From contig JBMOPW010000036.1 in assembly GCA_049322915.1 (NCBI GenBank), positions 195,719 through 230,789 on the forward strand: 35,071 nt of DNA, given 5' to 3'. Shown piece after piece: positions 2,913 to 35,071 of this stretch. Within the stretch, counting starts at the first letter, position 1. Every line of letters starts with the position of its first letter. The position numbers were made by a program, and so were the translations under genes. Under the pieces are notes generated by a model, which searched no databases, had not been told where the DNA came from, and worked only from the letters and a program-made list of their open reading frames with translations. Origin of the DNA: Candidatus Zhuqueibacterota bacterium (GTDB lineage: Bacteria; Zhuqueibacterota; Zhuqueibacteria; Thermofontimicrobiales; Thermofontimicrobiaceae).

Positions 2913-5900
2913 ATGAAAAAGATCATTCTCATTGTGTTGTCCCTGTTGGCTGTGAGCGCTCTCCGGGCGGAATTGTACATCAATGAATTCATGGCCGATA
3001 ACGACAATATCGTCGTGGACAATGCCGGCGACTACGATGACTGGATTGAGCTATACAACGACTACGACTATGCGGTGCAGCTTTCCGGCTACTATCTGAC
3101 GGACGATTATGGGAATCCCACGCAATGGCCATTGCCCGACGTCTCGATTCCGGCAAAGGGTTATATGATCATTTGGGCCGATGACCAGGCTGACCAGGGC
3201 GCGCTTCACGCCAATTTTAAACTGAGCGCCAACGGCGAGCAAATCGGTCTGTACCACGGCGACGCCTTTTTGGATTCGCTCACCTTTGGCGAGCAGACCA
3301 CGGATGTTTCGTTTGGCCGCTACCCGGACGGCGCGGCTTCCTGGTATTTCATGGCGGAACCCACTCCCGGCGCCGAGAATCGCTACACGAGCACGGAGAT
3401 CACCGAAGCGCCGGTATTTCAGCCCGGGCCCGGTTTTTATACTGACGATATCTCAGTGGAACTGAGCGTTTCTCACCTGGACGCGACCATCCGCTACACC
3501 CTGGATGGCGCAGAGCCGAATCCGGATAGCCCGCTTTACACATCGCCCATTCTGGTGACCGGGACGACCGTCATCCGCGCGAAAACATTTCGCGCCGGCT
3601 ATGATCCCAGCGACATCAGCACCGCTTCCTACATCATCCGGGATGATTTTGACATTGCCACGCTGTCCGTTGTCACTGATCCTGAAAATCTCTGGGATAC
3701 AGAGACCGGCATTTACACCAATTGGGAGGAGAGCGGCGACGAATGGGAGCGATCCGCTTCCATCGAATTTTTCGGGAAGGACGACGCGCTCGAATTCAGC
3801 TACAATGTTGGCCTGCGCATTCACGGCGGTTGGAGCCGAAGTCTGGAGAAAAAAAGTTTTCGCTACTATTTCCGCAGTGAATACGGACAAAGCTGGCTCT
3901 ATTACCAACTGTTCAAAGCCAAAGAGCTTGACCGCTATAAACGATTTGTCACCAGCGCGGCCTTTGGCAATTCATTTTGTCTGGATGATTACGGCACATT
4001 GCTGCGAGATCCGTTGCACCAGCTCCTGGGTCGCCGGCTCGAGCCGGATATCGGATTGGGCACGCATCCGGTGGCGCTGTATTTGAACGGTGAACCCTGG
4101 GGCCTTTACAATGCCATCGAGCACATCGACGACGAAATGCTCGAGACCAACTTCGGCATGACTGAGGCGGACATCATTGAAAATTATGACGAAGCCAAAC
4201 AGGGCAGCGAGGACCGCTTTGATGCGATGATCGCGTTCTTCGAAGCCAACGATTTTGAAAATGACGAGAATTATGAAACTGCCAAAACCATGATTGACAT
4301 GCAGAATTTCACGCGCTACAATGTCATGGAAATTTGGGGCGGAAATCGCGACTGGCCGGATAACAACAACATCGCCTATTGCGGGTATGAAGAGGGCGAC
4401 AGGTGGAAATGGTTCCTCTGGGATTTTGATAAGAGCATGGATTATTTCAGCACCAATTCCCTGGTCAAAGCCATTGATGAAAACACAGCCTGCACCATTA
4501 TTTTGAGGAAGCTGCTGGATAATGAAAATTACAGAAATTACTTCATCAATGAAACGGCTGACGCCTACAACACCATTTTGCTGGCGAGCCGCGTTGTGCC
4601 GGCGATCGATTCCCTGGCCGCGCTGATCCGAAACGACATCTGGTTCGAGGCCGAGCGCTGGGATGGCGATGCGCAAAAGTGGGAAGCGAATGTGGCCGAC
4701 ATGAAAACCTATGCGGAGAATCGGCTGGAATATCTTTACAAATACACGCGGGAGGAATTCGGCATTTCTGCAAATCATACTCTGACGCTCTCTGTCCCGC
4801 AGGGCGGCGCCGGCCGCGTCCGGGTGAACAGCATTTATCTGGCGCAATTCCCCTGGAGCGGCATCTATTTCGACGGCATCCCCATTGAACTGGAGGCAAT
4901 TCCCACGGCCGGATGTCAATTCCGCGAGTGGAGCGATGCCTCGCTGCCCAAAACTCCCACTGTCTCGGTGACCCTCACGCGGGACTATTCCGTCTATCCC
5001 ATTTTCGAATGTTCGGGTCAGACGTCGGGCGTTGTCATCAATGAAATCAATTACAACAGCGCCGGAGAATTCGACGCGGATGATTGGGTGGAGTTGCACA
5101 ACACGTCCGACAATCCTGTCAATGTCAGCAATTGGCATTTCCGCGATGACGACGAAAATCATGATTTCATTTTTCCCGGGGGAACCACAATCCCGGCCCA
5201 CGGCTTTCTGGTGCTGTGCATGGACATGACTAAATTCAGCAGCCTCTTCCCGGGGGTGACACCCATTATCGGCAATGTCGATTTTGGCCTGGGAGGCGGC
5301 GGCGACGACGTCCGAATTTATGATTTCGATATGAATCTGGCGGACTCCGTCACCTACGACGACAGCGCGCCCTGGCCCACGGAGCCGGATGGCGCAGGAG
5401 CTACATTGGAATTATTGGACGCCAACTCGGACAATTCACTTGCTGAAAACTGGGGCGCCAGCCTGGACCACGGCACTCCCGGTCAGTTCAATTCCATCAG
5501 CGCTGCCGGCGCCATTGCTGATCTTCGCGCGTCGGTCCTGGATGACGCCATTTTATTGGAATGGACCGAGCCGGATGGTATGGCTTCCTTCCACGTCTAC
5601 CGCGATACAACGTATAATTTTTCTCCGGATAAAGCGGCTGGCAGCAACCGAATCGGGGAAAGCGTCACAGATCAGGATGGCAGCGCCGCCGGGATTCAAT
5701 GGACAGACACCGGCCAGGGCGCAGATGTGGTCGGCGATGTCTCGACCAATTATTTCTATCGAGTCACCGCCGTTTCCGCGATGGAATACGCGCCCTCCAA
5801 TGTGGCTGGCGAATTCGACTACCAGTTGGTCACCACAAGCGGCACCGATATCAACCGCCTCGTTGTGCTCATGAATACGGCGAATACGCGCTTGCCCATT

Positions 5901-7040
5901 GCCACTGCTGAAGACCTGGCGCAGGCCATTCCCAATTGCACGGATGTTTACTGGTGGGACGCCAGCGGTCAGGGTACGGTCGGCCACGTCAAAGGGCTGC
6001 CGTTCAACAACTTCTCGGTTCAGCCAGGCCATGCTTACTCCGTCAGTGTGACAGAGGATACAGTCTGGACGGTAGCTGGCTCGTACGCCGATGTCAGTTT
6101 CAATCTGGTCACGACCGAGGGCACGGACATCAACCGCATCGGCGTGCCTTTGGCAAAAGCTGCGCTGACCACCGCCGACCAGTTGGGCGCGGATATTCCT
6201 AACTGCACCGATGTCTACCTGTGGGACGCTGTCGGACAGGGGACGCTGGGTCATGTGGTGGGATTGCCATTCAACAATTTTGCCGTGCGCGCCGGCTATG
6301 CCTACGCTGTCAGCATCACAGCGCCGACGGTCTGGCCCGATGACGGCGTGGGCGGTGGGGCGAGCCTGACCCTATCGTCGCCATGCCCTATGAAAGTCGC
6401 CGTGGACGAGGATTTTGTGGAATTTCGGATTCCCCACACCGTCTATGGTGAATATCAACAACCGCGGCCGGGCGCCCGCGTTCCTTCCATTCGCGCCTGG
6501 ATGTTGAGCCGTCCCCACGAAGTGCTGACGGACGCCAATTTCGGCATTGGCGTTGAAAAAAATCAGTGGTGGGTTGGCGTGAGCAACTTCGTCACCAAAT
6601 GGGAGGTCGGCGACAGTCTGATGGTGGAGATTTTCAATAAAGACAGCGAAACCTGTGGTTCGACCCTGGTCGTTTTGAGCAATGCCGGCTCCGACAATGC
6701 CGGGCGCATCCTGCTGACCGGCGTGAGCGACGAATCCGGAGAAGACCGCGTTGCGCTGCCGGGCCAATTTGCCCTGCGGCAGAATTATCCCAATCCATTT
6801 AATCCGTCCACAACGATCGCGTTCGATCTGCCGGTCGATTGCATGGTGACGTTCACGATTCACAATGCCAGGGCGCAGCTCGTCACTCGCTTGATCGAAA
6901 AAGAAGTCTCCGCCGGCCAGCACACGGTGCAATGGAATGCCGCCGATGAAAAAGGCCGGCCCGTTCAAAACGGCGTCTATTTTGGCACGCTGACCGCCGG
7001 TGAGTTCAGTCGCACAATCAAAATGATTGTGGTGAAATGA
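2913..7040 (+). CDS. Secreted CotH-family kinase with two lamin-tail domains, Fn3-associated/chitobiase C-terminal domain and FlgD/T9SS-type C-terminal domain
   Basis: RBS gaggtg then ATG 2913 with signal peptide MKKIILIVLSLLAVSALRA. LYINEFMADN...DWIELYN and VVINEINYN...DWVELHN are lamin tails. IRYTLDGAEP is Fn3-associated. LYLNGEPWGLY, GNRDWPDNN and WKWFLWDFD are CotH motifs. QNYPNPFNPSTT marks the CTD. Confidence 0.9.
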   Translation: MKKIILIVLSLLAVSALRAELYINEFMADNDNIVVDNAGDYDDWIELYNDYDYAVQLSGYYLTDDYGNPTQWPLPDVSIPAKGYMIIWADDQADQGALHANFKLSANGEQIGLYHGDAFLDSLTFGEQTTDVSFGRYPDGAASWYFMAEPTPGAENRYTSTEITEAPVFQPGPGFYTDDISVELSVSHLDATIRYTLDGAEPNPDSPLYTSPILVTGTTVIRAKTFRAGYDPSDISTASYIIRDDFDIATLSVVTDPENLWDTETGIYTNWEESGDEWERSASIEFFGKDDALEFSYNVGLRIHGGWSRSLEKKSFRYYFRSEYGQSWLYYQLFKAKELDRYKRFVTSAAFGNSFCLDDYGTLLRDPLHQLLGRRLEPDIGLGTHPVALYLNGEPWGLYNAIEHIDDEMLETNFGMTEADIIENYDEAKQGSEDRFDAMIAFFEANDFENDENYETAKTMIDMQNFTRYNVMEIWGGNRDWPDNNNIAYCGYEEGDRWKWFLWDFDKSMDYFSTNSLVKAIDENTACTIILRKLLDNENYRNYFINETADAYNTILLASRVVPAIDSLAALIRNDIWFEAERWDGDAQKWEANVADMKTYAENRLEYLYKYTREEFGISANHTLTLSVPQGGAGRVRVNSIYLAQFPWSGIYFDGIPIELEAIPTAGCQFREWSDASLPKTPTVSVTLTRDYSVYPIFECSGQTSGVVINEINYNSAGEFDADDWVELHNTSDNPVNVSNWHFRDDDENHDFIFPGGTTIPAHGFLVLCMDMTKFSSLFPGVTPIIGNVDFGLGGGGDDVRIYDFDMNLADSVTYDDSAPWPTEPDGAGATLELLDANSDNSLAENWGASLDHGTPGQFNSISAAGAIADLRASVLDDAILLEWTEPDGMASFHVYRDTTYNFSPDKAAGSNRIGESVTDQDGSAAGIQWTDTGQGADVVGDVSTNYFYRVTAVSAMEYAPSNVAGEFDYQLVTTSGTDINRLVVLMNTANTRLPIATAEDLAQAIPNCTDVYWWDASGQGTVGHVKGLPFNNFSVQPGHAYSVSVTEDTVWTVAGSYADVSFNLVTTEGTDINRIGVPLAKAALTTADQLGADIPNCTDVYLWDAVGQGTLGHVVGLPFNNFAVRAGYAYAVSITAPTVWPDDGVGGGASLTLSSPCPMKVAVDEDFVEFRIPHTVYGEYQQPRPGARVPSIRAWMLSRPHEVLTDANFGIGVEKNQWWVGVSNFVTKWEVGDSLMVEIFNKDSETCGSTLVVLSNAGSDNAGRILLTGVSDESGEDRVALPGQFALRQNYPNPFNPSTTIAFDLPVDCMVTFTIHNARAQLVTRLIEKEVSAGQHTVQWNAADEKGRPVQNGVYFGTLTAGEFSRTIKMIVVK

Positions 7041-7052
7041 GTTGCAACAACG

Positions 7053-7095
7053 GGTCATTCGCTCGCTCCCGAAGCGAATGGCCGGTTTCACTTTC
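7053..7095 (+). terminator. Putative intrinsic terminator
   Basis: Hairpin ggtcattcgct...agcgaatggcc followed by a T-rich tract, just after the CotH gene stop. Confidence 0.45.
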
Positions 7096-7426
7096 GCCGC
7101 AGGATTTTCCCCGGCCTTCCGCTTCAATGCTGCATTAACAAAATGACAATCACACGCCAACAATTCATCTGCTGCCTGCGCTGTGCAAGTATGGCCGGGC
7201 AGTTACCATTTTTTCATATTGACATTGCTGCATAGATTTTGTATGTTAGCGGTTTCGTAATTCATTCCCGGGTTGACTCTAAAACTCATTTGATACGTTG
7301 GGTATGATATCTTTTCCATGTCAAATATGACGTGGCAATTCTTTGAAAAAGTTTAAAGTTAGATAAACTGAACAGCCCCGATTTTTAAGTCGGGGAACAG
7401 ACCTGAATCATCAAAAGGGAGCAGTC

Positions 7427-21086: not shown

Positions 21087-21479
21087 ACGTCTATAATTTC
21101 CTGGGAAGATGCAGCGCCTGTCTCTTTTTGGCCCAGCGCCCGGCGAGCAGAAGATGAAATAGAAGCGATGAACAAAACGAAAATTACTCGTCGACTAAAA
21201 TTCGTGCCGCAGCTTGTTCGGCTGTACACACCCATTGTTAGCTATTTTTTTGAAAATTTTTCGGCGGATTCAAGTTCGAAGTGCAACAAGTTGGGTAATA
21301 TAAAACTGGAAGCAGCCGGAGAGCAACGAAAACAAAATCGCCAACAACGAAGGCTGGATTGTGTCGCGATCGTCAAACACTGATTCCTGTGATCTGCATT
21401 TAATGCAGCACTCATCAAAATGGGATCAATCGCCTTTGACGAGCTAATTCATTATCTCGAAAATTCCAATTTCCGTTGA

Positions 21480-21857
21480 AGCAGTACACACGTCGCGATG
21501 TGGTTTCCGGACGGTTTTGTAAATCTTTGATGCGCTTTCGATTCATTTCAACTTCAGACCATTGCGTATGAATCAGAAAATGGTCAAGACTATTGACAGA
21601 CTTTTGCTCAATGAAGGTCGATTGAATGCCGGAACAGGTTTTGTCTGCACCAATCCTAGTTAGATACTGTTTGAAATGTTGATATTGGGCTTTATTTGAA
21701 AATATTGCTTTAAAATTCCGTGCGTGCTTTTGAACAATTTGCGGTAAGTGAGTTATTTTTAGCATATCAGTTAGCTCTTATAATTATTCAACCAATTAAC
21801 TAACTGAAATATAGCATGTTAATCCGTTATTATTAACCTGTTTTTGGGAAAGTTTAG
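21480..21857 (-). mobile_element. IS701-like transposase remnant (left end plus N-terminal fragment, ATG 21765)
   Basis: F..IFSNKAQYQHFKQYLT...KT.SGI...SLDHFL...WS...N.KR resembles an IS701 N-terminus. Putative end CTAAACTTTCCCAAAAACAG at 21857. Truncated before the DDE domain. Confidence 0.6.
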
Positions 21858-21866
21858 TAAAATATT

Positions 21867-22094
21867 TTAAACTTTCATTTTCGCTTCGATTGTATCTGCA
21901 GAAAGATCAGCTCCACATTCCCACTCAACAAAATAACTTCCATTGGAAATTTTCATAAATTCTGATATGTCCTGCAATGGTTTGAATGCCTCATACTTTA
22001 AATAAGGCTTCACGTTAAAGATACCAATAAGACCTTTATCGGATACAATCCTCAGGGTGTAGTTTGAAATTGGAGTTACTTCATTAATTTTCAT
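21867..22094 (-). CDS. DUF2442 protein (putative antitoxin)
   Basis: VTPISNYTLRI...FNVKPYL...F.PL.D...F...VEWECGADLSADTI. Confidence 0.85.
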   Translation of the reverse strand: MKINEVTPISNYTLRIVSDKGLIGIFNVKPYLKYEAFKPLQDISEFMKISNGSYFVEWECGADLSADTIEAKMKV

Positions 22095-22363
22095 TGATCT
22101 AATCCTTTAATTGGAAATGGTTTCTTACCATTAGCTGCCAGCTCCCAGTCTGCTATCAGGTCTTCCTTGTGAATTTCGATCCACGCCACAACTAACTTAT
22201 GCTTATTAGAAGGTATTGAACCTGAGAGTACTTCACCATCTGGAATTGAATATACTGCCACTTGTCCTTGATAATCCGCATGAATATGTGGTAAATGGTT
22301 TTTTTCTGCATCCTTGAAAAACATTCTTATCAATATACCATAAAACATAGAAATTGTAGGCAT
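22091..22363 (-). CDS. DUF4160 protein (putative toxin of the DUF4160/DUF2442 TA pair)
   Basis: MPTISMFYGILIRMFF...HLPHIHADY...LVVAWIEIHKEDL...W...IKGL. Confidence 0.9.
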   Translation of the reverse strand: MPTISMFYGILIRMFFKDAEKNHLPHIHADYQGQVAVYSIPDGEVLSGSIPSNKHKLVVAWIEIHKEDLIADWELAANGKKPFPIKGLDQ

Positions 22364-22444
22364 CTATACCTCACCAAAAATGACTAAATTTGCTTTTATA
22401 AATATACAATATCTGGATTAATAATACAATCTTTTCAGCTATAA

Positions 22445-22850
22445 CCCATAATCCCCGCAGTTAGAGTTATACGCCATTAGCGCCTGCGTGGAAATTATTA
22501 GTTGAAGCATAGAGAAACCAGTATTATATTTAATTGGCGTTAAAATATAATGATGGAGGTCTCCCTATGCTTCGTCATCATATCACTCATTTTTTAGACT
22601 ATTGCAAAAATTCAAACTTCTCCAATCGCTCCATCGAATCGCTGGAGTGCCGGTTGCTGGAATTCAATGCCTTCATCCAACAGCAGGCCGCTCCCGGCAT
22701 CGAGCACATCACCTACCACCATCTCATTCAATTCGTCGCCGATTTTGGCACACCTTCACCATCCGTCAAAAAAATGCGGGTGTGGAGCCTGCACCAATTC
22801 TTTCATTACCTGACCCTGCAACAACTCATCCCGCACAACGTCGCCGCGCT
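22445..22850 (+). mobile_element. Tyrosine-recombinase element copy 1 (left end plus truncated recombinase, ATG 22567), abutting the cassette G|TT
   Basis: ctataac|ccataatccccgcagttagagttatacgccattagcgcctg. ORF MLRHHITHFLDYCKNSNFSNRSIESL...L.EF..F...ITYHHLIQFV...SPSVKKMRVWSLHQFFHYL...NVA is an XerD/phage-integrase SAM-like N-terminus. Colinear and near-identical with 25510-25828. Confidence 0.75.
22502..22530 (+). promoter_or_regulatory. Putative sigma70 promoter of the recombinase gene (also present in copy 3)
   Basis: TTGAAG-17 nt-TATATT, followed by RBS ggagg and ATG. Confidence 0.45.
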
Positions 22851-23292
22851 ATTACAGTCCCTGTCAGTTTTGATGAACGCATCGCACGACTGAATCTTCT
22901 ACAGGCAGGGTGGATCAATTATTTCAAATTAGCCAATATGTACGGCAAATTACGAGATATTGATGTCTGGGTTCGCCGCCGTCTGCGTGGCTGCATCTGG
23001 TCCCGCACCTGCGGGAGAAGAAACCAAACCGTAAGATGAAGAATCTTATCCGTTTGGGAATTCAACCAGGCATTGCCTATTCCTGGAGCCGCACTCGAAT
23101 GGGACGCTGGGCAGTTGCATGCAGTCCAATCCTCAGCACGACAATTACAAACGAAAGACTGGAACGCAGGGGCTATATTTCTATGCTATCGTATTACCTT
23201 AAAATTACTCATGGTTAATGAACCGTCCCGAAGCGTCGGGATGGTGTGAGAGGTGCACTCCAGTGGGAAACTGCTGAAGCCACCTACTCGAT
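22851..23292 (+). mobile_element. Group IIC-attC intron 3' remnant (frameshifted maturase C-terminus, damaged DV, DVI)
   Basis: SFDERIARLN..QAGWINYFKLA...LRDIDVWVRRRLR.CIW / KNLIRLGI...AYSWSRTRMG.WAVA.SPIL.TTIT..RL..RGY.S. Then gaaccg...tggtgtgagagg...cacctactcgat, followed by tagcggc, the rest of an attC R'' on the bottom strand. Confidence 0.9.
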
Positions 23293-23298
23293 TAGCGG

Positions 23299-23487
23299 CT
23301 ATTTTGCTGGCTCTACACCAAGATCTTTGCATATCTTTCTCGCCAAGATGTCCTTGATCTCGGAATGCCGAGGAATCGCCGACCGTTTATTTTGCGCTGG
23401 ATTATGCCACCATGAATGCTTACTACCTTCTCGTAAAAGATCGCATCCCTGGCTTCGCAGATACTTGAGAAGTTCATTTCTCTTCAT
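23299..23487 (-). CDS. hicA: HicA-family toxin
   Basis: MKRNELLKYL...GC.LLREGSKHSWW.NP...SAIPRHSEI...LARKICKDLG. Confidence 0.9.
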   Translation of the reverse strand: MKRNELLKYLRSQGCDLLREGSKHSWWHNPAQNKRSAIPRHSEIKDILARKICKDLGVEPAK

Positions 23488-23696
23488 ATGGCGATTTTTT
23501 CTTCCTTGTAGCCACTACCGGCAGAGGTCAATGCGTCCTGGCGGTTGAATTCCAATGCCTCTCTTAGCGTAACCTCCAAGGTCTCTTTCAACTCCTCGTA
23601 GGTCTTTTCCTGGCAATTTACACCGGAAATTTCCTCGATCCATCCCACCCACCAGTCGTCTTCCTGTTTCATAACCGCTGTATACTCGTTTTGCAT
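23484..23696 (-). CDS. hicB: HicB-family antitoxin (upstream of the toxin)
   Basis: YTAV.KQEDDWWVGWIEEISGVNCQEKT.EEL.ETL...L.EAL; RBS ggagg. Confidence 0.9.
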   Translation of the reverse strand: MQNEYTAVMKQEDDWWVGWIEEISGVNCQEKTYEELKETLEVTLREALEFNRQDALTSAGSGYKEEKIAI

Positions 23697-23734
23697 ACTC
23701 TTTGCCTCCATAATGAATATTTTATGCACGATAA

Positions 23735-23778
23735 CCCATAAACCCCGCAGTTAGAATTATACGCCATTAGCGCCTGCG
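23735..23778 (+). mobile_element. Tyrosine-recombinase element copy 2 (left end only), abutting the G|TT of the hicBA cassette
   Basis: cgataac|ccataaaccccgcagttagaattatacgccattagcgcctgcg. Confidence 0.75.
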
Positions 23779-23885
23779 CTCTGTCTGGGGGGCCGTATCC
23801 AATACAGTGAGTATTGGGCACATTGTTAATCCACTGGTATACTTTTCAATTAATACAATGGTACACTTTTCACTTGAAATTTACA
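23779..23885. mobile_element. IS21-family terminal remnant
   Basis: Minus strand TGTAAATTTCAAGTGAAAAGTGTACCA-TTGTATTAATT-GAAAAGTATACCA: a TGT terminus with tandem subterminal repeats, typical of IS21 ends. Confidence 0.65.
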
Positions 23886-24056
23886 ATTGCCGCAAAAGCC
23901 ATTAAAAAATCGGTGATTAAAATTCTCATCCAATTCCTTGAAATTTATTTATGAAGGCTTTCTTAATGCCATCTTTAACTCCTTGAATGTTGCAAGGCAA
24001 TTGATTCTTATCTTTCGAGACGAATCTTTGGTCTTACCATCGAATTGGACTTATTA

Positions 24057-24320
24057 TTAAGCAATTTTCTGTTTAATAATATCGCTAACCAGTTTTTTGA
24101 CTGGTTTTTGCTGCTTCTTGGAATAGGATCGTAACGCAATAAAACTTTCTTCATCCAACTCAATCTGGAAATGACGTCTTTTAATATCTGCTTTGAATTC
24201 AACAGGCTCCAAATATTCCTCATAATCTGTTATACTATGTGTATCCCAGAATTCGCCAGCTTCTTCTTCTGAAGAAAATTCATCAGGTAACGGATCAATT
24301 TTTTTATTTGTGTTTGTCAT
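24057..24320 (-). CDS. BrnA/CopG-like antitoxin
   Basis: LPDEFSSEEEAGEFWDTHSITDY...ribbon-helix-helix-like C-terminus. Confidence 0.85.
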   Translation of the reverse strand: MTNTNKKIDPLPDEFSSEEEAGEFWDTHSITDYEEYLEPVEFKADIKRRHFQIELDEESFIALRSYSKKQQKPVKKLVSDIIKQKIA

Positions 24321-24589
24321 AATATTTCATTTCAGTTAATGTCATTTCACGTGCTGATATAGGCAAAGCAATATCATGTTTTTTTTTATAAAAAATACAA
24401 TCAAGTATCGCCCATTGATGATTTGTGCTTGAGCGGATAGATATCTTCTCCATGCACTCGTCCTTTGACTACTTTACGAACTAAAGGACTAGAGTAGAGA
24501 GCTTCTTCTGCCTCATAAATGGTCACATTATGCTTGATTTCTAGTTTTTCAACAAATTGCTCCTTCCAAATAATATCCGTTATTTTCAA
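24304..24589 (-). pseudogene. BrnT-like toxin with two frameshifts
   Basis: IIW...EKL..KHNVT..EAEEAL, then GRYLIVFFIKK in another frame, then ALPISAREMT..E.KYY in the third frame. Shifts lie near 24436 and in the A9 run at 24379-24387. Confidence 0.75.
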
Positions 24590-24646
24590 ATTTCTTGCTC
24601 CTTAAAAATAAAATGAATAAATTAAAAAACAAGCATTATCTTCTAT

Positions 24647-24774
24647 GCATAACGAAAAGTGTTAGCCGCCGGAGCCGCGTAAAATGAAACTGCTAAAACG
24701 ACATTACTTTCTACGGCTATTATTTACTGCTATCGCGACAGGAGGCGCAGGTCGGCTACACACTTGTGTTAACC
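24647..24774 (-). other. attC site of the addiction-module (killer/antidote) cassette
   Basis: Minus strand GGTTAAC acaag tgtgtagccgacc...ggcggctaacac ttttc GTTATGC. R'' is exactly complementary to GTTAACC at the cassette 5' end (25506-25512). Confidence 0.85.
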
Positions 24775-24804
24775 ATTTATTGTCATCCAAATTGTTAAGG
24801 TGTT

Positions 24805-25119
24805 TCAAGCCGAGTGCGAAGGGTGAACTTCTTTTATTTCTATAGCCAATTTGAGTCCCAAGTTATCTAATATTGTCGAAAGGCTTGACAAATTGGGATT
24901 TCCTTCATTAGATAGCATCCGATACATATTCTCTCTATTAAGAGATGTTTGTTGCGAAATGTTTTTAATTCCCCTTGCTGCCGCGACATCTCTCAACGCC
25001 ATGAGAAATATTTCTTGATTTCCATCTTGGAGTGCAGCGTTCAGATATTCAACCGCCTCCTTTGGATTTCTGAGATCTTTTATGAGATCATCTTTGTAAT
25101 TTTTAGTGAGTTTATTCAT
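24805..25119 (-). CDS. Addiction module antidote protein (HTH, HI1420-like)
   Basis: L..PKEAVEYLNAAL.DG...FLMALRDVAAARGI..ISQQT.LNRENMYRMLS.EGNP.LSSL..IL..LG; start re-assigned to ATG 25119. Confidence 0.9.
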   Translation of the reverse strand: MNKLTKNYKDDLIKDLRNPKEAVEYLNAALQDGNQEIFLMALRDVAAARGIKNISQQTSLNRENMYRMLSNEGNPNLSSLSTILDNLGLKLAIEIKEVHPSHSA

Positions 25120-25450
25120 TTTTTCTCCTGCAATAATCAGCCCAAAACAATTTGGCCAAGTCAATATCTTTTTTTTGGCTTTTTTTACTACCCGCACAGA
25201 GGAGTATAATAAGGGTAGTGCCATCCTGGCCGAAATAAATCCTGTATCCTGGACCAAAATCAACTCGAAGCTCTGATACACCCTCGCCAACTGGTTTACA
25301 GTCTCCCAAATTGCCCAGGATAATTCGGTTAAGTCGGACACGAATAACGGCGCGAGCTTTTATGTCTTTCAATGATTTTATCCAATCATCGAAAGGGCAC
25401 TTACCATCTTCGGTGATATATTCGAGCAATTCTTTATGTTTTGATTCCAT
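25112..25450 (-). CDS. Addiction module killer protein (RelE/HigB-like, HI1419-like)
   Basis: Y.TEDGKCPFDDW..SLKD.KARA.I.VRL.RI..GNLGDCKPVGEGVSELRVDFGPGYRIYF. Confidence 0.95.
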   Translation of the reverse strand: MESKHKELLEYITEDGKCPFDDWIKSLKDIKARAVIRVRLNRIILGNLGDCKPVGEGVSELRVDFGPGYRIYFGQDGTTLIILLCAGSKKSQKKDIDLAKLFWADYCRRKNE

Positions 25451-25455
25451 ACTCT

Positions 25456-25484
25456 AATGTAGCTTAAAAGCCACTAAAAGTCAA
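25456..25484 (-). promoter_or_regulatory. Cassette-internal promoter, probably leaderless
   Basis: TTGACT-17 nt-TACATT, 5 nt upstream of the toxin ATG, with no RBS. Confidence 0.6.
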
Positions 25485-25511
25485 CTGGATTTTCATGAAA
25501 TAGATGGTTAA

Positions 25512-26011
25512 CCCATAAACCCCGCAGTTAGAGTTATACGCCATTAGCGCCTGTGTGGAAATTGTTAGTTGAAGCATAGAGAAACCAGTATTATATTTAA
25601 TTGACGTTACAATATAATTATGGAGGTTTCCCTATGCTTCGTCATCATATCACTCATTTTTTTGAGTATTGCAAAAATTCAAACTTCTCCAATCGCTCCA
25701 TCGAATCGCTGGAGTGCCGGTTGCTGGAATTCAATGCCTTCATCTTACTGCAGGCCGCTCCCTGCATCGGGCACATCACCTACCACCATCTCATTCAATT
25801 CGTCGCCGATTTCAGCACACCTTCACCAAAGGTGGTGTGTCGATCTGTCTTTTCCCCGGGAGAAGTACGCCTTGTTTATGCCTTATCGAAATAGCGATTG
25901 ATTTTTCCAACTCAATCGGTTATATTGAATCATCAACTGCTGCTCTCTCTATGTTGATGCTGCTTTTTCACCTGCCTAATTGCGTATAACTCGATTCTTT
26001 ACTGCGGGGTT
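25512..26011 (+). mobile_element. Tyrosine-recombinase element copy 3: both ends present, internally deleted (500 bp), inserted at the attC crossover
   Basis: Left end (c)ccata-aaccccgcagttagagttatacgccattag; right end (reverse complement) aaccccgcagtaaagaatcgagttatacgcaattag. Recombinase N-terminus from ATG 25634 breaks at 25828. Removing the element restores ...gcggagc ttttc GTTAACC. Confidence 0.8.
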
Positions 26012-26063
26012 CGAAAAGCTCCGCTGCCGAGTTTATGAGGTCGGCTGAAGCGACATGTTCGCC
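26012..26063 (-). other. attC site of DUF4160/DUF2442 cassette 2, separated from its R' by the element
   Basis: GGCGAAC atgtc gcttcagccgac ctcataaa ctcggcagcggagc ttttc G|. Overlaps the gene end (ANMSLQPTS). R'' matches GTTCACC at 26638-26644 at 6/7 positions. Confidence 0.8.
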
Positions 26064-26344
26064 AGCGAACCTTGCTGCGAATTCATCCATTCAGGTAGAG
26101 GGGAGTTCGTTGCCACGGAATAAAGTGTTTCAGGTGCAATATCGATTTCATCCCCCCAGGTAAGCACTCCAAGTTCCTCATTAATTTTAAAATTTTTGAA
26201 AAATTCCATATCCTTGAATTTTTCGAAGATCCCACCTTCAAGTAAATATTTTGAAAAATCGACGACTCCAGAGGCACCGTCCTCAAAAGTGATTTCAATT
26301 TTATATTCGCCCTTATATTTTGCTGAGATTACATCCCTAAGCAT
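26033..26344 (-). CDS. DUF2442 protein (putative antitoxin)
   Basis: YKIEITFEDGASGVVDF...GIFEKFKD.EFF...VLTWGDEIDIAPETLY. Confidence 0.9.
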   Translation of the reverse strand: MLRDVISAKYKGEYKIEITFEDGASGVVDFSKYLLEGGIFEKFKDMEFFKNFKINEELGVLTWGDEIDIAPETLYSVATNSPLPEWMNSQQGSLANMSLQPTS

Positions 26345-26356
26345 GACTCACCTCCC

Positions 26357-26617
26357 TTATTTCAACGGTTCAATTTTCTTTGGAGTCTGATTATTTTTCG
26401 CTAATTCCCAGTTATGACTAAGCTCATTCCTGTGCTGAACGGCCCATTCGATTACAAGCCCCAACGCACGAGGCGAAAAATGACCCTCCAGAATCCGAAG
26501 TGACTCTATTTCTATTGCCACTTTCTCCCCGCCATACCGTGCATGAAAATGCGGCGGGTTGTGATCATCGAAAAACATCGCAATGATTATACCATAAAAC
26601 CTACTGATCTCAGGCAT
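26357..26617 (-). CDS. DUF4160 protein (putative toxin)
   Basis: MPEISRFYGIIIAMFFDDHNPPHFHARY...LVIEWA.QHRNEL..NW...KIEPLK. Confidence 0.92.
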   Translation of the reverse strand: MPEISRFYGIIIAMFFDDHNPPHFHARYGGEKVAIEIESLRILEGHFSPRALGLVIEWAVQHRNELSHNWELAKNNQTPKKIEPLK

Positions 26618-26637
26618 TTTGGTTTTCCTTTTAATCA

Positions 26638-26771
26638 GGTGAACAACAATGTTGAGCGGCTGGAAATTTACAACGCACTATACATAAAATTTAATAAAAT
26701 CTTTAGACAATGTACCGAAAACTCAGATCAAAACAGCGTATTTCCAGTCCGATTCCAACATTTTGTTATGT
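26638..26771 (-). other. attC site of the giant cassette
   Basis: ACATAAC aaaat gttggaatcggactggaaat...atttccagccgctcaac attgtt GTTCACC. R'' is the exact complement of GTTATGT at 32475-32481. Confidence 0.85.
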
Positions 26772-32541: not shown

Positions 32542-33270
32542 CTTTTTTCCAAAATAGATATATGAATTTAAACTATAAAAATACTCACCCGTTTCTTTTA
32601 GATTTGCCATCTCATCAAGGATTATCTTGTATTCGTCTTTATCTAATTTTTCTTTTACCACTAAACTATATAAATCTTTTAAGCGATCATATCCATATTG
32701 GCCTTCTGAATAATCAGTTTCAAGTAAAGAAAAAATGTCCATTTGCCCATTAAATAATCCACTACCTTGAAATATACCCCAAAGCTTCCTACCCATTTGA
32801 CCATCGCTGGCATCCATCCAATCTTGTTGCCAGTCAGAAAAGGCTGCTACGAACTTACGAATCAAATTCTTGTATTCAGAATTATAAACCTGAGTATCCC
32901 AATCCCAATGTGCAAATAAAATTTGACCTTCTTTTTTAAGTATCCTATGGAGCTCATTGATTAATGCGGGTTTATTTTGAATACATTCGAGAGTATCAAC
33001 AGAAATTATGACGTCGAATGATTCATTGGGAAAATTGAAAAAATCATTAAATTTATTATAAATAAATTCTATGCCTGAATAACTTCTTCTTACCTTCTCA
33101 ATTGTTTTTTCATCTGAGTCTATTCCAACTAATTTGGAATCACTACTTACATTGTTTTTTATATCTTTAAGCAGTAATCCTGATCCACAACCGAAATCAA
33201 GAATTTCGTACGCCTTATCAGGTTCGAGACCAAGTAGATCAATTACTTTTTGATTAAGTTGTTTTTTCAT
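32536..33270 (-). CDS. Class I SAM-dependent methyltransferase (gene cassette)
   Basis: ILDFGCGSG, VGID, SFDVIIS, ELHRILKKEG. Start moved to ATG 33270 because the longer ORF runs through an attC. Confidence 0.9.
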   Translation of the reverse strand: MKKQLNQKVIDLLGLEPDKAYEILDFGCGSGLLLKDIKNNVSSDSKLVGIDSDEKTIEKVRRSYSGIEFIYNKFNDFFNFPNESFDVIISVDTLECIQNKPALINELHRILKKEGQILFAHWDWDTQVYNSEYKNLIRKFVAAFSDWQQDWMDASDGQMGRKLWGIFQGSGLFNGQMDIFSLLETDYSEGQYGYDRLKDLYSLVVKEKLDKDEYKIILDEMANLKETGEYFYSLNSYIYFGKKA

Positions 33271-33281
33271 GTCTATTCTTT

Positions 33282-33407
33282 GGGCAACGTGAAAATCAGC
33301 CGCCAAACCGCTTGCAAAAAAACTCATATAATGCACATACTTTCAAAATTCCCACCAAAATAGAATTGAAGCACGGCGGTTTGGTCGGCTACATTTTTTT
33401 GTTATGC
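33282..33407 (-). other. attC site of the NTF2-like cassette
   Basis: GCATAAC...tgtagccgaccaaaccgc...gcggtttggcggctga ttttcac GTTGCCC. Confidence 0.85.
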
Positions 33408-33436
33408 CTACATTTTGATTGATTTGCTTTTTCAAT

Positions 33437-33937
33437 CTACTCATTTTTTGGAGCAAAATACTCCCATCGACTAATATGCCCCATAAATATTACTTTCCAT
33501 TCGCCGTCCACTTTTTCAAGAACTCGAAGTTGTTTCGAAGGTTTAAAATCTGGGTTTTGTTCTGGGTCAATACCCCACCACTGATCATACGTAACCCATG
33601 CCCCCGTGCCATAATTACGAATGATAAAGTTTTTACGGATGATTTTAGTGTCCGATGGCTTAGGGTCGCCCTTAATATATTTCCTAATAGAATCCTGCAG
33701 GGCCTGCCAACCGATAATTTCTGTAAGAGAGTTTTTATCAACGCCAAGTAATTGTGAATAAGGTGCATGTACATAAGTCGAAGTCCATGCTGTAAAATCA
33801 TTATCCAAAAACGCCTGCGTCTCTTTTTCAATTGCTTCCTTGATTTTTTGTTCTTCGACTGCGGGATCAGGTTTTTGACAATTGTTAAAAATCAAAAGCG
33901 TAAATAGAAAAATGAGACAAATTTGAATGAATCGCAT
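33437..33937 (-). CDS. NTF2/SnoaL-like lipoprotein (gene cassette)
   Basis: Lipoprotein-type signal (...IFNNC), EEQKIKEAIEKETQAF...GW...AWVTYDQ...RVLEKVDGEWKV; RBS aggagg. Confidence 0.8.
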   Translation of the reverse strand: MRFIQICLIFLFTLLIFNNCQKPDPAVEEQKIKEAIEKETQAFLDNDFTAWTSTYVHAPYSQLLGVDKNSLTEIIGWQALQDSIRKYIKGDPKPSDTKIIRKNFIIRNYGTGAWVTYDQWWGIDPEQNPDFKPSKQLRVLEKVDGEWKVIFMGHISRWEYFAPKNE

Positions 33938-33979
33938 GACAACCTCCTAATTTAAATTTGAGAGTTTTATATTTACGGG

Positions 33980-34828
33980 GTCGGGTAGCCAAGAGCTGTT
34001 ACCAGCTCTCAGCCCCCTAAGAACCGTACGTGACAGTTTCCCGTCATACGGCTCAAGCCTCTGAAAAGTATCCCTTGTGGGGATACCCACGAATTAATAA
34101 TAATTTGTTTCACGTTACTTTCTGATATTCAGAATAGCCATAAGGTATGTAGAGTGCACCATTCGCCAAACGGCGAACGTTATTTGCTTTTTCTACTTTC
34201 ATCTGATTATACCAGTATTCACGAGACCAGAGACCTGCTGAACGTCTGCCTCTTTGCAGAGTCCCGATTCATCGGGATATCCCGACCGTTACAGCCGGAC
34301 ATTCGCTTCTTTCAGCATCCTATTCCAATCCACCATCAGCTTGCCTTACGGTTAGCCTGCCCATCATAACAGGGCGATGGAATTGGGTTTCCACGTTCCG
34401 TACAATTGACCACAATGAGCAACTTAGGTGGATTCTCTACGCCGGCGATACGACAGTTCCGTATAGGTAGTTAGAAGACCTATAACCTGATCGCCTGTGT
34501 AAACACAAGGAAACACAGCTTAGACCTGACCCGCAGTTATTCTTGCTGGAATAATCTCCGTAGGTCAGATGCACGCATGACGACGCTTACGAACCTTTGA
34601 TTATTCTCACCATATTACTCAGACCTTAGCCCTTAACCAGAGGAGATTTCCGGATGGGTTTCCATCTCACGACTTCCACCCGTTTCGGTACATTGTCCGG
34701 TGAGCTTCACACCCCGTCACCTGCGCAACGGCAGCATGTCACCGTAAGGTACTGATAGGAACATATCAGGTTTGTCCAAAGAACATAATCCTTTAACAAA
34801 CATTCAATTATACAGCTTCGTGTCGCAC
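33980..34828 (-). mobile_element. ORF-less group IIB (CL1-like) intron, 849 nt, inserted in an attC R' core
   Basis: 5' end GTGCGACACGAAG; intact DV GAGCCGTATGACGGGAAACTGTCACGTACGGTTC; DVI ending CTACCCGAC; no RT ORF; flanks GTTATA|CCCG. Confidence 0.92.
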
Positions 34829-34948
34829 TATAACGTGAAAATCAGCCGCCAAACCGCTTGCAAAAAAACTCATATAATGCACATACTTTCAAAATTCCCA
34901 CCAAAATAGAATTGAAGCACGGCGGTTTGGTCGGCTACATTTTTTTGT
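34829..34948 (-). other. attC site, identical over 117 bp to 33286-33402, interrupted at both ends by introns
   Basis: 34832-34948 = 33286-33402. R' reads GTTATA| then the IIB intron. The bottom strand reads TTGT| then the IIC intron. Confidence 0.85.
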
Positions 34949-35071
34949 GTGTGCCTGGCATGGCGCGTGTATGTTTAATTTAACTGAATATACACAAATT
35001 ATCCAGAGGGTGCAAGTCCCTTATGGGCGAGTTGGCGAAGCCCATCAGTAAGCCGCAAGGGTGTTCCGGGT
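34949..35071 (+). mobile_element. Group IIC-attC intron, 5' end (runs off the window)
   Basis: GTGTGCCTGGCATGGCGC...agagggtgcaagtccc...agtaagccgcaagggtg begins exactly after TTGT, where the sister attC continues TTGT/TATGC. Confidence 0.88.

Follow-up and report, generated by a model that had tools for sequence, protein, structure and literature searches.

A group II intron without an open reading frame, probably of the CL/IIB1 kind, in the R' core of an attC-like site of a Candidatus Zhuqueibacterota bacterium

We analysed a stretch of 35,071 nucleotides (nt) from a Candidatus Zhuqueibacterota bacterium (GCA_049322915.1, contig JBMOPW010000036.1, positions 195,719 to 230,789 of the forward strand), here called the window, to whose positions the coordinates below refer. 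The window is the end of one contig (C36) of a 6.25-Mb assembly that consists of 45 contigs and is 96% complete. Near the end of the window, reading along the minus strand, a putative attC site (attC1, 34829..34948) is interrupted in its R' core by a group II intron that lacks an open reading frame (ORF) (33980..34828), and this is followed by a cassette gene (33437..33937) and by a second, intact site (attC2, 33282..33407). The cassette gene encodes 166 amino acids (aa) with a lipoprotein-like N-terminus, was assigned to no Pfam family, and has its AGGAGG and ATG 43 nt downstream of the intron.

In integrons, attC sites lie at the 3' end of a cassette gene and consist of the cores R'' (RYYYAAC) and R' (GTTRRRY) and of imperfect arms, L'' and L', with extra bases, spanning about 57-141 nt; the crossover point of the integron integrase is G|TT. 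The sites described here were assigned using our own criteria (cores, arms, size and position after a gene), and these features were found at attC2, at attC1 and at a third attC-like site, ACATAAC...GTTCACC (26767-26642, minus strand), which follows a gene for a 1885-aa secreted glycosidase-like protein. The 126-nt attC2 directly follows the 166-aa gene, reads GCATAAC-...-AGCCGACCAAACCGCC...GCGGTTTGGCGGCT-GATTTTCAC-GTTGCCC and, by comparison with attC1, represents the analogue of an empty site. The top strand of attC1 is likewise the minus strand of the window; the site extends from an AC remnant of R'' to GTTATA (34834-34829), which is the intron-binding site IBS1, and was recognized by its identity to attC2 and by a family of 11 attC-like repeats. 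Its two insertions apart, attC1 matches attC2; the identity runs from the A-run to CACGTT, after which the two sites diverge (GCCC... in attC2, ATA[intron]CCCG... in attC1). The identity therefore ends at G|TT, where integron cassettes join, as expected of a cassette boundary. An extra base is present in the R''-L'' arm (AGCCG[A]CCAAACCGC versus GCGGTTTGGCGGCT). The 11 repeats were obtained by searching the genome with a profile of three hairpins and are located on 8 contigs; three of them contain the intron, and each intron copy is preceded by an imperfect hairpin of approximately 120 nt.

The intron boundaries were read from the sequence together with the Rfam matches and give a minus-strand element of 849 nt, from GTGCGAC at 34828 to ...CTACCCGAC at 33980. 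Along this strand the 5' exon ...TTTTCACGTTATA is followed by the intron, GTGCGACACGAAG ... GGCTACCCGAC, and by the 3' exon CCCGTAAATATAAAAC..., such that the R' core is split as GTTATA|intron|C in the orientation of the cassettes. The first base of the 3' exon (C, 33979) is the seventh base of R' and, from the sequence and the comparison of copies, the presumed IBS3; were the intron spliced out, the exon junction would read GTTATA-CCCGTAAAT. An earlier note on this DNA, made by reading the letters, had placed the element at 33980..34834. Its 33980 end stands, whereas 34834 takes in the six exon bases GTTATA; the position on the cassette (top) strand at GTTATA|C inside R', the lack of an ORF and the full-length domain V that it had reported were all recovered. 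There is no ORF of at least 50 aa on the intron strand inside the intron, and a tblastn search with the intron protein of a relative (described below) returned no match inside it at an E value below 10.

Rfam searches matched RF02012 (group-II-D1D4-7) at 34770-34629 (83.1 bits) and RF00029 (domains V and VI) at 34056-33980 (69 bits, cut-off 40), both on the minus strand. Six helical domains, DI to DVI, were predicted using RNAalifold, with compensatory changes in 109 of 280 pairs; 52 of these are among the 150 pairs of DI (seven family members) and 57 among the 130 pairs of DII-DVI (five ORF-less copies). DI comprises intron positions 7-437 (34392..34822, converted by us from alignment columns), DII lies at 34325..34386 and DIII at 34236..34317, and DIV is reduced to a remnant of 180 nt without an ORF (34056..34235; negative by tblastn). 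DV (34021..34054), defined by the RF00029 alignment and RNAalifold, has 34 nt and the AGC triad, the usual DV of group II introns having about 34 nt, this triad and a two-base bulge, and DVI (33983..34017), defined in the same way, has a GUAA tetraloop and a bulged branch A at 33986, 7 nt from the 3' splice site. The ends, GUGCG...GAC, agree with the group II pattern of 5' GUGYG and 3' AY. The element, of which two further copies occur in the genome, is a genuine ORF-less group II intron.

Within DI, a hairpin at 34462..34484 (minus strand) has a 7-bp stem and a 9-nt loop, CUUCUAACU. The stem tataggt/acctata occupies 34462-34468 and 34478-34484, the loop 34469-34477, and the six bases UCUAAC within it 34475-34470. 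The consensus fold makes it the final hairpin of subdomain ID, with compensatory changes in three of the seven stem pairs (RNAalifold). UCUAAC pairs with five of the six bases of its own exon, GTTATA, leaving a C.U mismatch at -2. The stem, its coordinates and the five pairs are as the earlier note had given them, and the structural alignment puts the loop where that note had supposed the exon-binding site EBS1 to be, in the terminal loop of the distal ID hairpin. Loop positions 3-8 were scored against exon positions -1 to -6 in the 33 relatives that have both a 5' exon and the loop; 6/6 bases pair in 17 of them, 5/6 in 13, 4/6 in two and 1/6 in one. The mean of 5.33 out of 6 compares with 4.17 +/- 0.19 when the exons were permuted among the introns, and none of 10,000 permutations reached the observed value. 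Loops and exons vary together, i.e. UAUAAC with GTTATA or GTTATG, CAUAAC with GTTATG, GCUAAC with GTTAGC and CCUAAC with GTTAGG. When the second EBS1 base is A or G, exon position -2 is T in 8/8 cases; when it is C, position -2 is G in nine, T in eight and A in two. A subtype with the loop CUCUAACGU (CUAACG) inserts one base earlier, after CGTTAG, and pairs 6/6 in three and 5/6 in two of five cases. By its position and by covariation with the exon, the loop CUUCUAACU is EBS1. A comparable hairpin is found in an intron of a Shigella plasmid, in the same GGUUAU...AUACCCGGA context, and its loop positions 3-8, GCUUCC, are by eye the exact complement of its own exon GGAAGC. An alignment of DI with this intron using MAFFT misaligned the 5' end and the EBS1 hairpin and was not used.

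The family to which the intron belongs was collected from DNA searches, which detected it in 7 of the 21 genomes of the order. Of 39 loci retrieved from genome contigs with a 17-mer, 28 were dropped as chance matches on inspection, and the 11 true members include several in records of candidate division KSB1 and one in a gammaproteobacterial metagenome-assembled genome. Metagenome contigs, scanned with a 21-mer, yielded 55 loci. As the search motifs lie inside the intron (approximately positions 61-83), the collected exons are unbiased by the search. Two false regular-expression hits (L028 position 71 and L104), two duplicates with identical 22-nt exons and all loci with a 5' end cut by a contig end were left out of the exon counts. 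GTT was present in register in 48 of 56 unique 5' exons, as GTTNNN| (-6 to -4) in 38 and as GTTNN| (-5 to -3) in 10, and the 3' exon starts with C in six and T in one of seven family junctions. In the upstream flanks (150 nt taken, those of at least 130 nt used), the exon GTT pairs with an AAC 48-124 nt upstream in 18 of 45 minimum-energy DNA folds, compared with 23 of 300 random GTTAKN sites of this genome (Fisher p 1e-7). Together with the covariation in the 33 relatives, the exon register bears out the proposal of the earlier note that EBS1 is programmed against the attC R' core; the check that it had named, whether the 5' exons of homologues are attC R' boxes, gave GTT in register in most of them and a closed hairpin in 18 of 45 folds. 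The first bases of family members vary (GUGCG, UUGCG, UCGCG, UCGUG, AUGCG, CUGCG or CCGCG). The only U-start copy with its 3' end seen, that of G010 (L020:3271-3345), ends in GU and not in AY, and the first and penultimate intron bases may covary. Introns can be dense in some arrays, as three family DV/DVI matches lie within 3.3 kb in L088-L090 (G023:C141:158-3347).

Evidence on the class of the intron comes from DI and from the protein of a relative. The full-length relative G010 (2.3 kb; 74% identical over DI) codes for a protein of 452 aa in which RVT_N, RVT_1 and GIIM domains were recognised but no endonuclease domain; its best match among solved structures is the T.el4h maturase-reverse transcriptase (6me0_C; E 2.4e-145). 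Introns of the T.el4h type from T. elongatus are called CL/IIB1 by Mohr et al. 2010 (PMC2882425), who also describe ORF-less CL/IIB1 introns of this organism as mobilised by the proteins of sister introns. RF02012 likewise matches the Shigella plasmid intron (120.9 bits), whose protein is 52% identical to that of the relative, and from these matches RF02012 appears to stand for the IIB1/CL1 class. In accordance with IIB1 introns, the window intron has the D1-D4 architecture (RF02012, 83.1 bits) and a 6-nt EBS1 in the distal ID loop; no EBS2/EBS2a pairing was found for the one candidate motif scored. These comparisons support an intron of the CL/IIB1 kind, as the earlier note had suggested from its 5' end, the window copy having no ORF and the protein evidence coming from the relative.

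According to PMC8643678, IIB1 introns pair EBS2 (5 bp) and EBS2a with the exon at about -8 to -14. At the place given there for EBS2a/EBS2, the start of the ID(iv) loop, the window intron has the motif ACGGAGA (34555..34561, minus strand), which is kept as ACGGRGA-like across the family. When this motif, the only one tested, was scored against exon positions -7 to -20, 3.32 of 5 bases paired compared with 3.29 after permutation, with 839 of 2000 permutations at or above the observed value (n = 28). The exon positions that EBS2 would pair with consist of the variable spacer and the L' arm of attC. Of the three guide elements that the earlier note had wanted checked by a domain I fold and Rfam models, EBS1 was hence confirmed and an EBS2 pairing was not found. 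The C or T at +1 (6 and 1 of the 7 junctions) is compatible with a purine at EBS3.

Two more full copies of the intron are present in the genome, on contigs C32 and C19, and a diverged 5' fragment is also on C19. The two are identical to each other (848/848), and the window copy is 90.1% identical to both. The 5' exons end in GTTATA at the window copy and in GTTATG and GTTAGG at the other two; both flanks differ among the copies, and the 3' exons have nothing in common beyond an initial C, which all three share. That two identical copies occupy different sites speaks for recent movement. Between the window copy and its sisters, whole stems are exchanged for other stems in the DIV hairpin (UUCGCC/GGCGAA versus UCCCGAC/GUCGGGA) and in distal DVI, where the stem of the other two is different but equally paired and has a GCAA loop; the three copies share DV, the branch site and the EBS1 loop without change. 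All three copies lie 0.3-7 kb from a contig end. The assembly thus breaks around these repeats, and a protein-coding copy or an integrase may be missing from it.

Another group II-like element, ORF-less and unrelated to the intron, has its 5' part in the bottom strand of attC1 (34949..35071, plus strand), inserted at TTTTGT|GTGTGCC inside R'' as judged by comparison with attC2. It starts GTGTGCCTGG and is cut off by the end of the contig. Contig C14 has a copy of approximately 725 nt that is 94% identical (L006:1505-2230), lies after ...GATTGT| and is followed by TAGAG; this copy gave a sub-threshold match to RF01998 (31.9 bits, cut-off 35, E 8e-4). Bottom-strand insertion in R'' fits the pattern of IIC-attC introns.

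Toxin-antitoxin-like gene pairs lie downstream of the third site; two DUF4160/DUF2442 gene pairs are found at 21415-26767 (minus strand), along with genes for a CopG-type antitoxin and an HI1420-type antidote, and the last 14 kb of the window resembles a cassette cluster without an integrase. Among the toxin-antitoxin-like genes, a 145-aa ORF (22602-23039, plus strand) has a GIIM domain (E 2.4e-10); no Rfam intron match was obtained around it and tblastn gave no similarity to the family protein, and it may be what is left of another, decayed intron. The order has integron integrases above the TIGR02249 cut-off in 8 of its 21 genomes, and 2 of 5 further host genomes have them as well, most integrase genes of the relatives being at contig ends. 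When the attC profile was run against six integrase-bearing loci of the relatives it gave one match, in G019 (E 2.4e-19), approximately 2.8 kb from the integrase gene. A structural attC finder of our own was too insensitive (it missed attC1, attC2 and the C14 copies) and helped only in pointing to the site at 26767-26642. A consensus scan of 33250-35071 gave 3 promoter-like sites where 3.5 are expected and none on the intron strand near the 3' end of the intron, such that an outward promoter is unsupported. Among 23 public sequencing runs listed, none was an RNA data set holding this DNA. In contigs of four DNA runs compared with 33250-35071, no joint passed over the intron in full and no allele with an empty site was seen; mat, cave and sediment metagenomes contained pieces of the intron repeatedly and at high depth. 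No conclusion was drawn from either observation.

We consider it probable that the element is an ORF-deleted CL/IIB1 retroelement, of the lineage of the published intron UHB.I2 (compared below), that is specialised on the attC R' core. The intron RNA, together with a reverse transcriptase (RT)-maturase supplied in trans by a full-length relative, would reverse-splice after GTTRRR into the top strand, which is the sense strand of the cassettes. EBS1, six bases in the end loop of the last ID hairpin (UCUAAC here), would pair with GTTAKR, and one further base, EBS3, would read the Y that follows GTTRRR, the usual second guide EBS2-IBS2 remaining unused. As the insertion site is 5 nt past the crossover G|TT, the attC hairpin would stay whole. 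The intron would become the first element of the downstream cassette, in an untranslated leader and on the transcribed strand, from which splicing would be possible, and the position of the crossover implies that it would travel with that cassette. What the sequences show is how the intron is built, its attC setting, the EBS1/IBS1 covariation across the family, the missing ORF and several copies in different attC sites; mobilisation in trans, splicing and co-transfer with cassettes are inferences. The pairing statistics and the exon motif support the suggestion of the earlier note that this is an independent route to attC, through EBS1 recognition of the GTTRRRY core.

A number of observations weigh against this interpretation. 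The attC calls rest on our own criteria, and no integron integrase above the TIGR02249 cut-off was detected in this genome (best 79 bits against 265), so that the sites make up, at most, an attC cluster without its integrase. R'' and R' are closed in only 18 of the 45 minimum-energy folds, and the control rate of 7.7% is not negligible. Eight of the 56 exons have no GTT in register; five of these are one base away from GTT and one lies directly after the 3' end of another intron. The last is a tandem insertion on the minus strand at approximately position 88 of L028 (G015:C174), where ...CCTACCCGGAC|ATGCGAC marks the junction. With regard to pairing, the C.U mismatch of the window copy at -2 recurs in 8 of the 19 relatives that have C at this EBS1 position, intron L074 pairs at only 1/6 in register, and the base of EBS3 was not located in the intron. 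Both the permutation and the Fisher tests overstate independence because the family members are related, and the comparison with the Shigella EBS1 hairpin, which MAFFT did not align with that of the window, rests on reading the sequence. Finally, a search of this genome for a cognate RT-maturase gave nothing closer than a match of 31-32% identity, which lies inside a 988-aa ORF (G000:C34:430820-431722, L077), the RT region of which is the only group II-like RT that was found there. A cognate protein at E 1e-50 or better was present in only 2 of the 21 genomes of the order. The protein may have come from a copy that was not assembled, or may have been lost after the movement.

These points leave room for other explanations, some of which concern the target. 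The hairpin repeats could be structured intergenic repeats of another kind, unrelated to integrons, with the intron homing to GTTAKR at their 3' foot. The lack of an integron integrase in this genome and in its congener G005, the scatter of the 11 repeats over 8 contigs instead of one long array, and the known copies missed by our crude attC finder would all suit such a view. We nevertheless regard it as improbable, given that the repeats have R'' (RYYYAAC-like) and R' (GTT...) cores, measure about 77-126 nt, leave a spacer unpaired and carry an additional base in one of the arms, that the identity of two of them stops exactly at G|TT, and that they follow genes in gene orientation, toxin-antitoxin-like pairs included. 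Furthermore, integrases are present in the order, with a repeat of the same sequence family near the integrase gene of G019, and the site that abuts the published relative UHB.I2 was called attC by IntegronFinder (PMC7923331). It would also be conceivable that an integrase shuffled intron-plus-cassette units among attC sites, or that homologous recombination did so, leaving the EBS1 match as a relic of one ancient insertion, since G|TT has both TTAKR and the intron on its cassette side and an integrase would move the two together. The three copies differ, however, at exon positions -1 and -2 and in the 3' exon, i.e. in the cassette itself, and the two 100% identical copies have different downstream cassettes. 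EBS1 variants that covary with exon -1 and -2 would be explained only by repeated target selection through base pairing, and we judge the shuffling explanation very improbable. An assignment to class C, as one of the known IIC-attC introns, has the location in an attC site in its favour and is otherwise scarcely conceivable. This class was rejected because the insertion is in the top strand at GTTRRR|Y in R' and not in the bottom strand at TTGT|T in R'', and because of the 6-bp EBS1, the 34-nt DV, the D1D4-7 match shared with the Shigella CL1-type intron and the protein of the relative, which is nearest to CL/IIB1. A single class C intron with sense-strand insertion in attC reportedly exists.

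The remaining alternative accepts the origin proposed above but holds that the window copy is now an inert relic, immobile and perhaps unable to splice, and present only as 849 nt of structured leader RNA. We take this as a serious possibility without favouring it. An older copy is indicated by its 90.1% identity to two sisters that are themselves identical, the assembly holds no cognate protein, EBS1 has the C.U mismatch at -2, and attC1 has also been struck by the second element. On the other hand, the differences from the sisters are concentrated in stems and compensated (the DIV hairpin and the distal DVI stem), no change is seen in DV, in the EBS1 loop or at the branch site, and the protein-coding copy may be missing because the assembly breaks at the repeats.

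Should the preferred explanation, a CL/IIB1 retroelement specialised on the attC R' core, be correct, such introns would be transcribed with the cassettes, could affect cassette expression and would be carried along in cassette moves. They would provide a compact, naturally occurring IIB1 ribozyme whose target requirement is very short, and the family would offer a direct test of how far a IIB intron manages without EBS2. We also propose, tentatively and with considerable doubt, that this IIB1 lineage has converged on the targeting of class C introns by dropping EBS2-IBS2 and relying on the folded attC hairpin, with its single-stranded top strand, together with the 6-bp EBS1 and EBS3. If so, cassettes would serve as vehicles with which the intron moves between genomes as the first cassette element, and identical copies in different attC sites, as well as opposite-strand introns within one attC, would provide integrase-free routes of cassette reshuffling or creation.

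The closest published system is UHB.I2, an intact IIB1/CL1 intron from a soda-lake cassette array that is reported to lie in cassette orientation "immediately after" an attC site (Sonbol and Siam 2021, Mob DNA 12:8, PMC7923331). The supplement of that paper gives the attC (IntegronFinder) as c(7295..7364) and the intron as c(5096..7296), with an overlap of 2 nt. Like the family described here, UHB.I2 is in cassette orientation and abuts attC; its 5' end, TTGCGACATGATG, resembles by eye those of the family, its insertion point lies 5 nt past the G of R', as in the CGTTAG| subtype, and its boundaries, UUGCG...GU, are those of G010. It differs from the window intron in encoding a 500-aa protein, the likeness of which to that of the relative was judged by eye only. 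PMC7923331 reports poor exon conservation and contains no target rule and no link between EBS1 and R'. It was the only paper found on a IIB intron at attC, and none was found that describes the EBS1-R' rule or ORF-less members, subscription journals not being covered. The statement of the earlier note that described attC introns are class C is incomplete in view of UHB.I2.

A parallel for the spread of ORF-less members is provided by Thermosynechococcus elongatus, where the ORF-less TeI3 and the ORF-containing TeI4 illustrate IIB1 derivatives without an ORF spreading with sister proteins (PMC2882425); these introns, unlike the present family, use EBS1 and EBS2 on diverse, mostly intergenic sites and not on attC. 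IIC-attC introns such as S.ma.I2 resemble the family in being group II introns specialised on attC, apparently without EBS2-IBS2 and with a hairpin upstream (PMC7923331, PMC3001079). They are, however, of class C and enter the bottom strand, antisense, at TTGT|T in R'' with an IBS1 of 3-4 bp, whereas the window intron is of the apparent IIB1 kind and occupies the top strand at GTTRRR|Y in R' with an IBS1 of 6 bp. The attC sites have been thought to be invaded by one lineage, class C and antisense. The window intron and approximately 50 relatives point to a second, unrelated IIB1/CL1 lineage with both autonomous and ORF-less members, which enters attC on the sense strand by a readable rule, in that EBS1 is the complement of GTTRRR.

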